This document shows positions 7,083 through 14,569 of a stretch of 64,000 bases of DNA, piece by piece. The stretch spans positions 59,044 to 123,043 of the forward strand of contig JBOHIW010000013.1 in the NCBI GenBank assembly GCA_050726055.1. The letters are read 5' to 3'. Every line of letters begins with the position of its first letter. The first letter of the stretch is position 1. This stretch comes from Phyllobacterium sp. (lineage in GTDB: Bacteria > Pseudomonadota > Alphaproteobacteria > Rhizobiales > Rhizobiaceae). The notes under the pieces were generated by a model. The model was not told where the DNA came from, ran no database searches, and saw only the letters and a list, made by a program, of their open reading frames with translations. A program made the position numbers and the translations under genes.

Positions 7083-7910
7083 TTAACCGTTGCGAAGCCG
7101 TTCGATCAACTGGATACGTTCGCCGCTCTGGTTCATCTGGCCGGTCAAACCGGCGATGAGTGTTTCCACCACCAGGTGAAGCGCCGTCGTCGAATCCCAG
7201 GCGGAGGGAACGGCGGTTCGCCCGACAATGACATGGCGCGAGAAATGCGAGATCGGTGAAATCCACTGGTCGGTGAAAAGCACGATTTCGGCGCCGCGCT
7301 TTTGCGCCTGTTCGGCAAAGCGGATGAGGCTGTCCTGATAGCGGCGGATGTCAAAGACGAGCAGGACGTCGCGCTTTGCCATGTCGATGAGTTGGTCCCG
7401 CCAGATGCTTTCCTGCCCGTCGATATGGAAAACGCCGGAGCGGATGATCCGCAGATGCGCGGCCATGTAGCGGGCGATCGGGTCGGTGAAGCGTCCGCCG
7501 ATCAGGAATATGCGGGAGCGCGGGCGACTCAGCGTGGCGATGACTTCCGCGACCTGCTTTTCCGGCAGATGCCGGAATGTCTCGGTGATGTTCTCGATGG
7601 CCGAGGCCACCAGTGTGGCAACCGCACCGGACGGTGGCTTCATGATGGTGTTGCGGATCAGGGGCGACTGGATCTGCGCTGCCAGTTCCTCCTGAAGCGC
7701 GGACTGGAATTCCGGATAGTTCTGGAAGCCGAGCCGCGACACGAAGCGCAGGATTGTCGGTGAGCTGACGCCAGCCTGCGCCGAGAAGTCCGCAACGGTC
7801 CTCAGGCCGATCAGGGGATAATTGGCCATGAGCGTCTGCGCAGCCTTGCGCTCGCTGGCTGGCATCTCGCCCATTTTGACGGTGATCAGTTCGGCAATAC
7901 TGGTGCTCAT
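7083..7910 (-). CDS. MurR/RpiR family transcriptional regulator (HTH + SIS)
   Basis: SERKAA..L, AGVSSPTILRFVSRLGF..YPEFQ HTH and a C-terminal SIS domain; divergent from the catabolic operon. Confidence 0.9.
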   Translation of the reverse strand: MSTSIAELITVKMGEMPASERKAAQTLMANYPLIGLRTVADFSAQAGVSSPTILRFVSRLGFQNYPEFQSALQEELAAQIQSPLIRNTIMKPPSGAVATLVASAIENITETFRHLPEKQVAEVIATLSRPRSRIFLIGGRFTDPIARYMAAHLRIIRSGVFHIDGQESIWRDQLIDMAKRDVLLVFDIRRYQDSLIRFAEQAQKRGAEIVLFTDQWISPISHFSRHVIVGRTAVPSAWDSTTALHLVVETLIAGLTGQMNQSGERIQLIERLRNG

Positions 7911-8027
7911 GAAACGGCCGTTCCCCCTGTTTCTGTTCTCTGCCCGCTGTCGATAGTGGCTGTGCGAGCAAGGCGCAACACACAAACCGGATTGTTGAAA
8001 TTTGCCATTTGACAAATCCGATGACAA

Positions 8028-8081
8028 TGTATGAAATCATACGCATAAGGGAATCCAAAAACAATTGTAACGAATGTTACA
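8028..8081. promoter_or_regulatory. Pair of palindromic operators, probably for the adjacent RpiR regulator
   Basis: TGTATGAAATCATACG (8028-8043) and TGTAACGAATGTTACA (8066-8081); both fit TGTA-N8-TACR and each is palindromic. Confidence 0.6.
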
Positions 8082-8090
8082 GGAGCTTGA

Positions 8091-11940: not shown

Positions 11941-11997
11941 CATGACCGGCAATGGCTGGTCCGGCCTTTGCCCCTGTCTCAACAAAGGAACAAAAGC

Positions 11998-13383
11998 ATG
12001 ACCGATACGGTCAAGATCATTTCGCCCATTGATGGCTCGGTTTATGCGGAACGCCCGATCCTTTCGGACAAGGCGGTGGACGCTGTCGTGGAGACGGCAA
12101 GGCAGGCGCAGGCCGACTGGGCGGCGCTGAGCATCACCGAGCGCAGCCGCTATTGCCTTGCGGCCCTCGATGCGCTGGTTGCCATGAACGATGACATCGT
12201 GCCGGAAATCGCCTGGCAGATGGGGCGTCCGGTGCGCTATGGCGGCGAGAAGGGCGGCGTCGAGGAGCGCACGCGTTATATGGCGAAAATCGCCGAGGAG
12301 GCGCTCAAGCCGCTGGTTGCGGATGATCGTGAGGGCTTCCGGCGCTATGTGAAGCATGTGCCGCTGGGCGTCGTGATGGTGATCGCGCCATGGAACTATC
12401 CCTATCTTACGGCCGTGAACACGATCATGCCCGCCCTCATGGCGGGCAATGCGGTGATCCTGAAACACGCTGCGCAAACCCTGCTCGCGGGCGAGCGCTT
12501 CGCCAAGGCGTTTGAGATCGCCGGACTGCCGAAAGGCGTGTTCCAGAATGTCGTTCTCAGCCACGGACAGACGGAAAAGCTGCTGGGTTCGGGCCGGATC
12601 GACCATGTGAATTTCACCGGTTCGGTCGGCGGCGGGCGCGCCATAGAGAAAGCGGCGGCGGGCACGTTCATGACGCTGGGGCTGGAACTCGGCGGCAAGG
12701 ACCCGGCCTATGTGCTTCCCGACGTCAATCTCGATCACGCGGTCGCCAATCTGGTCGACGGCGCGTTCTTCAATTCAGGGCAATGCTGTTGCGGTATCGA
12801 GCGGGTCTATGTGCATGAGGCGGTTTACGACCGGTTTGTCGAAGGCTTTGTCGATCTGACGAGACAATATGTCGTTGGCAATCCGCTCGAACAGGCGACG
12901 ACGCTGGGACCGATGGCGCAGGCCCGTTTTGCCGATCTCGTGCGCGAGCAGAAGGCGGAGGCCCTGCGCAAGGGCGCAAAGGCGCATGTCGGCATGAGTG
13001 TCGTCAATGACAAGGCGGGTTCGCCCTATCTGGCGCCGGAAGTGCTTACCCATGTCGATCATCAGATGAGCGTCATGCGGGAAGAAAGCTTCGGCCCGAT
13101 CGTCGGCATCATGAAAGTGCGCAATGACGAAGAGGCCATCGCGCTGATGAATGACAGTCCCTACGGCCTGACGGCATCGCTCTGGACTGCGGATACCGAC
13201 CATGCGGCCTTGCTTGGCGACCGCATCGAAACCGGCACGGTGTTCATGAACCGCTGCGACTATCTCGATCCCGCGCTGGTCTGGACCGGCGTCAAGGACA
13301 CGGGCAAGGGCGCGGCGCTTTCCTCCATCGGCTTCGGCAATCTGACCCGTCCGAAATCCTATCATCTTCGTGAAAAAATCTGA
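11998..13383 (+). CDS. NAD(P)-dependent aldehyde dehydrogenase
   Basis: IAPWNYP, FTGSVGGG, LELGGKDP, FNSGQCCCGIER, EESFGP. Confidence 0.95.
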   Translation: MTDTVKIISPIDGSVYAERPILSDKAVDAVVETARQAQADWAALSITERSRYCLAALDALVAMNDDIVPEIAWQMGRPVRYGGEKGGVEERTRYMAKIAEEALKPLVADDREGFRRYVKHVPLGVVMVIAPWNYPYLTAVNTIMPALMAGNAVILKHAAQTLLAGERFAKAFEIAGLPKGVFQNVVLSHGQTEKLLGSGRIDHVNFTGSVGGGRAIEKAAAGTFMTLGLELGGKDPAYVLPDVNLDHAVANLVDGAFFNSGQCCCGIERVYVHEAVYDRFVEGFVDLTRQYVVGNPLEQATTLGPMAQARFADLVREQKAEALRKGAKAHVGMSVVNDKAGSPYLAPEVLTHVDHQMSVMREESFGPIVGIMKVRNDEEAIALMNDSPYGLTASLWTADTDHAALLGDRIETGTVFMNRCDYLDPALVWTGVKDTGKGAALSSIGFGNLTRPKSYHLREKI

Positions 13384-13396
13384 AAGACCTGCCCAA

Positions 13397-14569
13397 ATGA
13401 GCAAGCTGATCTCCAAATGGAACTACCCGACCACTGTGCGCTTCGGTGCTGGCCGCATCAAGGAATTGCCGGAAGTGCTGGAAGCGGCGGGTATCAAGCG
13501 GCCGCTGTTCGTTACCGATCCGGGCCTTGCCAAGCTGCCTGCGGTCGCCAAAACCCTCGCTATTCTGGATGCGGCGAAGGTGAAATATGGCGTATTCTCG
13601 CAGGTGAAGCCCAATCCGGTTGAATCAAATCTCGTGGCGGGCGTTGCGGCCTTCAAAAAGGGCAAGCATGATGGCGTCATCGCCTTTGGCGGCGGCTCGG
13701 CGCTCGATCTCGGCAAGCTCATCGCCTTTCAGGCAGGGCAGACCCGCCCGGTCTGGGATTTCGAGGATATTGGCGACTGGTGGACACGCGCCGACGAGAA
13801 GGCCATCGTGCCGATCATCGCCGTGCCGACCACGGCGGGAACGGGTTCGGAAGTTGGCCGCGCCGGCGTTTTGACCAATGAGGAAACCCATACGAAAAAG
13901 GTGATTTTCCATCCGAAAATGCTGCCGGTCACGGTCATTGCCGATCCGGAACTGTCGGTCGGGATGCCGCCCTTCATCACTGCCGGTACGGGCATGGACG
14001 CATTGGCGCATTGCCTCGAAGCCTATTGCGCGCCGGGCTATCACCCCATGGCCGACGGTATCGCGGTCGAGGGCGTTCGCCTCGTGTTCGAGAACCTGCC
14101 TAAGGCCTTTGCCAATGGCAAGGATCTGACGGCCCGTGCAAACATGATGAGTGCCGCGGCGATGGGCGCGACTGCGTTCCAGAAGGGATTGGGCGCGATC
14201 CATTCGCTCTCCCATCCTATCGGCTCGCTCTACGACACGCATCATGGCATGACCAATGCGGTTTTCATGCCCTACGTGCTGGCCTTCAACCGCGATGCAG
14301 TTGAGGAGCGCATCGTGCGCCTTGCCAATTACGTTGGCATCAAGGGCGGGTTTGACGGCTTCGCCAAGGCCATTCTCAAGCTGCGCAAGGATCTGAAGGT
14401 GCCCAACACCTTGCCGGGCCTGATCAAAGGTCTCGACATGGACAAGAAGCGCAAGACGCTGATCGCCGAGATGGCCATTGTCGATCCGACCGCAGGCGGC
14501 AACCCGGTGAAGCTGACGAAAAAGGCGGCGCTCGCGCTTCTCGACAACGCCATCGAGGGCAATCTTTAA
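13397..14569 (+). CDS. Iron-containing alcohol dehydrogenase
   Basis: NP....V..G, GGGSALDLGK, PTTAGTGSE, GMDALAHCLEAY, HSLSHP, HHGMTNAV. Confidence 0.95.
   Translation: MSKLISKWNYPTTVRFGAGRIKELPEVLEAAGIKRPLFVTDPGLAKLPAVAKTLAILDAAKVKYGVFSQVKPNPVESNLVAGVAAFKKGKHDGVIAFGGGSALDLGKLIAFQAGQTRPVWDFEDIGDWWTRADEKAIVPIIAVPTTAGTGSEVGRAGVLTNEETHTKKVIFHPKMLPVTVIADPELSVGMPPFITAGTGMDALAHCLEAYCAPGYHPMADGIAVEGVRLVFENLPKAFANGKDLTARANMMSAAAMGATAFQKGLGAIHSLSHPIGSLYDTHHGMTNAVFMPYVLAFNRDAVEERIVRLANYVGIKGGFDGFAKAILKLRKDLKVPNTLPGLIKGLDMDKKRKTLIAEMAIVDPTAGGNPVKLTKKAALALLDNAIEGNL

Follow-up and report, generated by a model that had tools for sequence, protein, structure and literature searches.

The DNA analysed was a 64-kb stretch of a Phyllobacterium sp. 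contig (hereafter the window; coordinates are positions within it). Positions 7083-14569 contain six intact open reading frames (ORFs): a gene for an RpiR-family regulator and, divergent from it, five plus-strand genes encoding, in this order, an FGase-family hydrolase, an APC-superfamily permease, a glutamine synthetase (GS)-like ligase, an aldehyde dehydrogenase (ALDH) and an iron-type alcohol dehydrogenase (Fe-ADH). The five-gene operon, together with its regulator (a repressor or an activator), is probably an orthologue of the published gamma-glutamylation route of ethanolamine catabolism, as judged from the sequence comparisons below. The position of the permease gene (the slot between hydrolase and ligase) is tentatively proposed to be an exchange point, where at least three uptake systems (TRAP, ACT-type and EAT-type) have repeatedly been substituted for each other against a constant background of enzymes, regulator and operator; under the same proposal, which we rate slightly short of an even chance, the EAT-type permeases are an unnamed sister clade of Eat that serves gamma-glutamylation (with two ligase families) and not EutBC. 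The pathway, the gene set and the RpiR regulator are already published, as is a permease within a glutamylation-type ethanolamine cluster, in Streptomyces (PMC6529630). What the cassette exchange and the candidate operator add is modest, and current understanding of the pathway itself is unchanged.

Relation of the operon to published ethanolamine clusters

A preliminary description of the window, made from its letters, had pointed to a similar enzyme set from Chromohalobacter salexigens, and this precedent was found to be real: in PMC10378866, Csal_0675-0681 are cited as a seven-gene, B12-independent route from ethanolamine to glycine. The operon MED193_10021-10056 of Phaeobacter sp. also matches and encodes an RpiR regulator, gamma-glutamylglycine amidohydrolase (GGAH), the TRAP transporter EtoVWX, ethanolamine gamma-glutamylase (ETAGA), gamma-glutamylacetaldehydeamide dehydrogenase (GAADDH) and gamma-glutamylethanolamide dehydrogenase (GETADH) (PMC10132767). 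The MED193 operon proteins rise on phosphatidylethanolamine, and the TRAP binding protein EtoX binds ethanolamine with a Kd of ~8 µM (PMC10132767); Csal_0678 was crystallised with ethanolamine (PDB 4UAB; PMC12410723, 2025). Both clusters resemble the window in their divergent RpiR gene (that of MED193_10021 has the same position and orientation; PMC10132767), in the identical order of hydrolase, transporter, ligase, ALDH and Fe-ADH, and in a route that is, for the window by prediction, independent of EutBC and cobalamin. The transporter gene is the sole difference from the characterised clusters, which have three TRAP genes where the window has one EAT-family APC permease.

For comparison, two samples were used: 80 species-representative Rhizobiales loci, and 36 other genomes with a ligase orthologue, out of a 400-genome sample of the phylum. 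The window ligase was 77-89% identical to the ligases of the 80 Rhizobiales clusters, whereas for TRAP-type clusters of other families the figure was 53-60%. Aligned along its whole length, the window ligase scored 823.7 bits against PDB 11zs and 553.5 bits against PDB 5dm3; all true GS structures gave at most 185 bits. PDB 11zs, the closest solved relative, is a recent entry titled only 'Glutamine synthetase, catalytic domain', on which no paper was found in the literature search; its source and ligands would bear directly on the substrate assignment of the ligase. Assignments of the ligase to GlnA (TIGR00653, 242.4 bits against a cut-off of 429.15), to GS III (TIGR03105, 230.1 against 469.6) and to PuuA, the enzyme of putrescine glutamylation (NF045547, 202.6 against 650), were rejected.

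The hydrolase scored 195 bits against PDB 2odf (Atu2144). It matched only the broad Pfam family FGase, and was rejected as the N-formylglutamate deformylase HutG (TIGR02017, 18.9 bits against 278.75). The ALDH reached no NCBIfam equivalog; its gene directly follows that of the ligase in nearly all loci, with identities mostly of 74-88% (63% in one). The Fe-ADH was 66-90% identical across related loci. The same gene string was found in more than 100 other genomes, and is therefore not a chance juxtaposition.

A connection between the core enzymes and ethanolamine came from the TRAP-type loci. Of the 80 Rhizobiales loci, 33 have a TRAP system flanked by the same core, with ligases 77-82% identical to that of the window; among these, the Brucella clusters have a ligase 80% identical to the window's and a binding protein that scored 516 bits against PDB 4UAB. 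These TRAP loci and the Brucella orthologue of the ethanolamine-bound Csal_0678 provide an independent link of the core to ethanolamine, whatever the identity of 5dm3. Orthology of the core enzymes with those of the published route is well supported by these comparisons.

Best matches put the organism in Phyllobacteriaceae, close to Phyllobacterium. The genome assembly (99.86% complete) was searched for EutB and EutC, as the preliminary description had advised, and neither was found. No orthologue of the TRAP ethanolamine-binding protein was detected in this genome with the Brucella EtoX orthologue as query (best match 26% identical), and the ACT-type permease of related clusters had no match. 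The glycine-cleavage P protein GcvP is encoded elsewhere in the genome, so that the nitrogen of glycine can be released.

By analogy with the published pathway, from which all reaction steps were transferred, the EAT-family permease would import ethanolamine, and the GS-like ligase would use ATP to link it to the gamma-carboxyl group of glutamate, forming gamma-glutamylethanolamide. The free alcohol of this product would be converted to the aldehyde by the Fe-ADH, and the aldehyde to gamma-glutamylglycine by the ALDH. The FGase-family hydrolase would then free glycine and regenerate glutamate, for a predicted net yield of glycine and two reduced nicotinamide cofactors per ATP; the glycine cleavage system would subsequently liberate the nitrogen, and neither cobalamin nor a microcompartment would be required. 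Ethanolamine as the substrate of both operon and permease is assigned by the same analogy. The earlier interpretation of the operon as an ethanolamine-to-glycine route was thus supported by the gene order (as in MED193 and Csal), by the 553.5-bit match to 5dm3, by the Brucella link to 4UAB and by the lack of EutBC.

Two further systems were compared with the window. In the classical short operon eat-eutB-eutC, the permease falls under the same APC subfamily model as that of the window (TIGR00908), but the B12-dependent ammonia-lyase EutBC yields acetaldehyde and ammonia, whereas the route of the window has no EutBC and is predicted to yield glycine. In the GlnA4/SPRI_5940 cluster of Streptomyces, a GS-like enzyme glutamylates ethanolamine, and dehydrogenase, ALDH and hydrolase steps follow (PMC6529630). 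This cluster shares with the window the ethanolamine-glutamylation layout and a single permease gene, expression of which in S. coelicolor improved growth on ethanolamine (PMC6529630). According to its authors, the Streptomyces permease has no similarity to Eat, unlike the EAT-family permease of the window; the Streptomyces cluster also has, from the description in the figure legend, a short-chain dehydrogenase and a 'glutamine amidotransferase' in place of the window's Fe-ADH and FGase-family hydrolase (PMC6529630).

These assignments allow the correct annotation of a cobalamin-free, microcompartment-free route to ethanolamine nitrogen in a Phyllobacteriaceae genome, whose genes would otherwise be annotated 'glutamine synthetase', 'amino acid permease' and 'N-formylglutamate amidohydrolase'. 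The comparison also aids annotation and the choice of experiments, showing a pathway that is widespread in Rhizobiales and Rhodobacter-type families, with an interchangeable transporter. The key study of the pathway, by Vetting and colleagues, reportedly also used Agrobacterium tumefaciens.

The transporter slot and the permease clade

The slot was occupied by a TRAP transporter in 33/80 Rhizobiales loci and 15/36 other genomes, by an ACT-family permease (TIGR00907 type) in 31/80 and 13/36, and by an EAT-type permease like that of the window in 5/80 and 2/36; the remaining 11/80 loci and 6/36 genomes had no recognised transporter there. TRAP predominates outside the window's own family. The TRAP transporter is accessory to the cluster, because 47 of the 80 related loci likewise lack it in the slot. 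The preliminary description had stated that an ethanolamine-permease-like carrier replaces the TRAP system, and an APC permease does occupy the slot; the arrangement is, however, not unusual, since 36 of the 80 Rhizobiales loci have an APC permease, mostly of a different APC family. The ACT-family permease and that of the window are unrelated beyond the APC fold (BLASTP E = 0.005).

The closest relatives of the window, from Phyllobacterium species, carry this unrelated ACT-family permease in the slot where the window has the EAT type. The ACT-type sister clusters of Phyllobacterium and Mesorhizobium have ligases 88-89% identical to that of the window, and the same operator palindrome. At the DNA level, the window was collinear with three Phyllobacterium genomes through gnd, the RpiR gene and the hydrolase gene, and again from the start of the ligase gene through the Fe-ADH gene into an adjoining ABC operon. 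Homology to the Phyllobacterium loci was lost only over ~8812-10568 (the transporter gene) and resumed at the ligase start, 10569; because the loss is confined to the transporter gene, a clean cassette replacement is concluded. In a ligase tree that was built with FastTree only and follows taxonomy, the transporter label needs at least seven changes among the transporter-bearing rows, and in the same FastTree-only tree the EAT type stands at three separate places.

One Phyllobacterium shares the EAT type. In P. leguminum (L012, 4576-12190), genes for an EAT permease (91% identical), the ligase, ALDH and Fe-ADH directly follow gnd; the locus lacks the RpiR and FGase hydrolase genes and has its ABC operon on the opposite side.

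Two cluster lineages were observed in the window's own family (L124 and L126-L129 contrasted with L112-L119), both carrying ACT- or EAT-type permeases. The first has a ligase ~79% identical to that of the window and the ABC operon downstream; in the second the ligase is 64-66% and the RpiR ~34% identical, and the ABC operon is upstream and divergent. Outside the Alphaproteobacteria, two loci from a family in another class of the same phylum (L121 and L122) have ligases 70-72% identical to the window's, compared with 53-60% in Rhodobacter-type families. The permease is of the EAT type (73% identical) in one and of the ACT type, encoded after the Fe-ADH gene, in the other. Because their ligases are closer than those of the Rhodobacter-type families, the comparison suggests lateral transfer of the cluster.

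The slot permeases of P. leguminum (91-92% identical to that of the window) and of four Mesorhizobium/Rhizobiaceae loci (68-70%) formed one clade with the window permease in a maximum-likelihood tree (support 100/99). This group was nested within an alphaproteobacterial clade, and the eutBC-linked Eat was a distant outgroup. On this phylogeny, the window permease is classed in a sister clade of canonical Eat, and not as a canonical Eat. Relatives at least 50% identical bear merely the PGAP name 'amino acid permease', and the plasmid genes to which PGAP gives the name eat share 40-42% identity (46.5% for the one from Thermomicrobium).

Members of the wider permease clade were found in several contexts. 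One (L102, 56% identical) lies in the same FGase-type cluster as in the window, and others stand alone (L095, L100 and a P. zundukense plasmid). In four other Alphaproteobacteria (L096-L099), a permease 64-69% identical to that of the window lies directly upstream of a different GS-like gene, whose product shares 32-36% identity with the window ligase. Three of these four loci have an Fe-ADH orthologue (55-58%), with none within the sequence stretch of the fourth, and two have an ALDH orthologue (56-57%); L099 (8245-13599) has a class I amidotransferase/peptidase C26 (PuuD-like) hydrolase instead of the FGase enzyme. Loci of this type are probably a second, analogous cluster for amino-alcohol glutamylation, with a layout closer to that of the Streptomyces GlnA4 cluster, and as such likewise need an amine with a primary alcohol. 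On the evidence of these gene neighbourhoods, the permease clade appears to have been recruited repeatedly to amino-alcohol glutamylation; such recruitment supports the assignment as an ethanolamine importer, less directly than membership of Eat would.

Other neighbourhoods were recorded for more distant permeases. Those at 47-52% identity on Agrobacterium leguminum plasmid p1 (L106) and Pseudomonas aeruginosa plasmid pZM21 (L107), and that of L101, adjoin SDR oxidoreductase genes. The two plasmid permeases also adjoin genes for LuxR-type regulators, and on pZM21 the permease is next to a Tn3 transposase. On the Thermomicrobium roseum megaplasmid (L108, 2803-6554), three genes stand in series: one for a 'glutamine synthetase family protein', one for a glucose 1-dehydrogenase (SDR), and an annotated eat permease gene. 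A GS-like ligase is thus paired with an EAT-family permease outside Proteobacteria as well.

No description of an EAT- or ACT-type version of the cluster in Proteobacteria was found in the literature, in a search that did not extend to Vetting et al. 2015. If the exchanged transporters do carry ethanolamine, and differ in affinity and in energy coupling, the influence of habitat on the choice of transporter could be read from this locus as from a natural experiment. A functional name would also become available for a clade now annotated only 'amino acid permease', and the conserved neighbouring ABC system could add a fourth route for uptake of ethanolamine or of a precursor.

Candidate operator, substrate and uptake

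The intergenic region between the divergent RpiR gene (start at 7910) and the FGase gene is 180 nucleotides (nt) long and contains the perfect palindrome GTATGAAATCATAC (GTATGA-AA-TCATAC). Ahead of the hydrolase gene, and at a similar spacing from it, the motif was present in 68 of 68 loci (the window and the 67 others that have both genes), with 0-1 mismatches in 44 loci and 2-4 in 24; shuffled regions mostly gave 5-7. It is present whatever the transporter type (TRAP, ACT or EAT), which argues for one regulon and one inducer. A second copy was sought across the 64-kb window, including the region upstream of the ABC operon, and the single occurrence was the only one. We propose that GTATGAAATCATAC is the RpiR operator, to which the regulator would bind, and offer this conserved 14-nt palindrome as a testable site.

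Several observations weigh against the assignment of operon and permease to ethanolamine. The preliminary description had proposed scoring the permease on TIGR00908 ('ethanolamine permease'), and the result, 376.7 bits, falls 5 bits short of the cut-off of 381.75; clade member L099 scored 380.7 bits, and the eutBC-linked Eat L104 555.4 bits. The window permease is only ~35% identical to L104, the one eutBC-linked Eat examined (from another alphaproteobacterium). Moreover, the clade is not tied to one pathway: some relatives (47-52% identity) have SDR and LuxR genes as neighbours, and others are solitary. The permease had been taken as an independent pointer to ethanolamine: its EAT-family membership stands, with TIGR00908 as its best model, but its sub-cut-off score, its place in a sister clade and its distance from the eutBC-linked Eat reduce its value as a pointer. 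For the ligase, PDB 5dm3 is presumed to be Csal_0679, its database label reading only 'L-glutamine synthetase'. Finally, the conserved ABC importer adjoining the operon could carry the real substrate or a precursor.

The same chemistry could serve another small primary amino alcohol, instead of or besides ethanolamine, for instance L-alaninol (giving alanine) or 3-aminopropanol (giving beta-alanine). Any amine that bears a primary alcohol would satisfy the succession of ADH and ALDH, and the permease stands apart from canonical Eat. In addition, the Csal_0678 chain has a further PDB entry, 4xf5, presumably an alaninol complex, so that the family may tolerate analogues. The core enzymes, however, share 77-89% identity with those of clusters in which the binding protein is clearly orthologous to Csal_0678, the protein crystallised with ethanolamine, and the conserved operator argues for the same inducer. 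With published induction and binding data that concern ethanolamine (PMC10132767), we regard a different amino alcohol as unlikely. A generic gamma-glutamyl pathway for polyamines or alkylamines (Puu- or Ipu-like), with a superficial resemblance to the ethanolamine route, is the least probable explanation by far. GS-like ligases for putrescine, isopropylamine and arylamines do have the same fold, and the best NCBIfam matches of the ALDH are succinic semialdehyde and aminobutyraldehyde dehydrogenases; the PuuA and PuuC models, though, gave only 202 bits (cut-off 650) and 198 bits (cut-off 850). Neither an oxidase nor a monooxygenase nor a PuuD-type hydrolase is encoded in the operon, putrescine glutamylation offers no place for an Fe-ADH, and the full-length similarity to 5dm3 is strong and accompanied by synteny with the published ethanolamine clusters.

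A third explanation retains ethanolamine as the substrate of the enzymes and assigns the main uptake, of ethanolamine or of a phosphorylated or esterified precursor, to the adjacent ABC system, the permease being a carrier of other cargo or a low-affinity route. Within the set of 80, most of the Phyllobacterium, Mesorhizobium and related loci have the ABC operon next to the cluster, and in Mesorhizobium it directly follows the Fe-ADH gene in the same orientation; 3 of the 11 loci with no recognised transporter in the slot have an ABC binding protein nearby. Some transporter nonetheless fills the slot in 69/80 loci, and its TRAP version is known to bind ethanolamine. Furthermore, the ABC binding protein is no close relative of PhnS (66 bits against a cut-off of 310), the ABC operon of the window has no upstream operator copy, and Brucella-type clusters lack the ABC system. 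Main uptake through the ABC system therefore appears a little less probable even than a change of amino alcohol, and import of ethanolamine by the slot permease is preferred.

Coordinates and neighbouring features

The preliminary description had placed six genes at 7083-14569, every one of which was confirmed, with intact ORFs and with domains assigned by Pfam and NCBIfam. Measured on the ORF coordinates, the spacers within the plus-strand operon are 39, 73 and 27 nt, and one pair of genes overlaps by 14 nt. Likely true starts, given in the table, were chosen from homologue alignments and ribosome-binding sites, and make four genes (RpiR, permease, ALDH and Fe-ADH) slightly shorter than their longest ORFs. 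For the RpiR gene this is the in-frame ATG at 7908-7910; its homologues in 68 loci begin to align no earlier than residue ~35-40 of the long ORF. The ATG of the permease gene, which had been proposed earlier, was borne out by the ribosome-binding site AGGGGA that precedes it. The ALDH gene likewise has a ribosome-binding site before its ATG, and the Fe-ADH gene also starts at an ATG.

Table. Features of the ethanolamine-type operon and its surroundings in the window
Feature	Position	Strand	Evidence and remarks
RpiR-family regulator	7083..7910	-	Pfam HTH_6 47.9 bits and SIS 71.9 bits; longest ORF to 8027
Perfect palindrome GTATGAAATCATAC, candidate RpiR operator	8029..8042	.	Conserved in all loci tested
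Second palindrome TGTAAC-gaat-GTTACA	8066..8081	.	10 nt ahead of the FGase start codon; specific to the window
FGase-family amidohydrolase, predicted gamma-glutamylglycine amidohydrolase	8091..8885	+	Pfam FGase 157 bits; same position as GGAH MED193_10026
APC-superfamily permease, EAT family (TC 2.A.3.5 type), predicted ethanolamine importer	8979..10496	+	AA_permease_2, TIGR00908; longest ORF from 8925
GS-like ATP-dependent ligase, predicted glutamate-ethanolamine ligase (gamma-glutamylethanolamide synthetase)	10570..11940	+	Gln-synt_C 344 bits
Aldehyde dehydrogenase, predicted gamma-glutamyl-aminoacetaldehyde dehydrogenase	11998..13383	+	Aldedh 394 bits; longest ORF from 11968
Iron-type alcohol dehydrogenase, predicted gamma-glutamylethanolamide dehydrogenase	13397..14569	+	Fe-ADH 170 bits and ADH_Fe_C 140 bits; longest ORF from 13370; same position as GETADH MED193_10056
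Intrinsic-terminator-like hairpin	14612..14654	+	15-bp stem with 8 GC pairs, then T run; 43 nt past the Fe-ADH stop
ABC ATPase	15208-16362	-	Near PhnT2 (430 bits, cut-off 457)
ABC fused double permease	16287-17909	-	Part of the importer operon
ABC binding protein	18059-19162	-	Best PDB match 5t1p

The hairpin after the Fe-ADH gene was the top-ranked terminator site and marks the end of the operon. An Rfam search of the cluster revealed no RNA element inside it, and a sigma-70 consensus scan of 6900-15400 gave no promoter, such a consensus scan being uninformative for an alphaproteobacterium. The second palindrome was found in just one other locus (L044), at a different position.

The ABC importer operon (15208-19162) is convergent with the ethanolamine operon, and its substrate may be related to ethanolamine. 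Identification of the importer as a PhnS-type 2-aminoethylphosphonate system was rejected on the score of its binding protein. At the start of the window, Rfam placed the alphaproteobacterial small RNA ar45 (69-215, 137 bits) and, immediately after it, a speF leader (224-372, 98 bits); the ar45 segment is treated by Rfam as a family separate from the speF leader.

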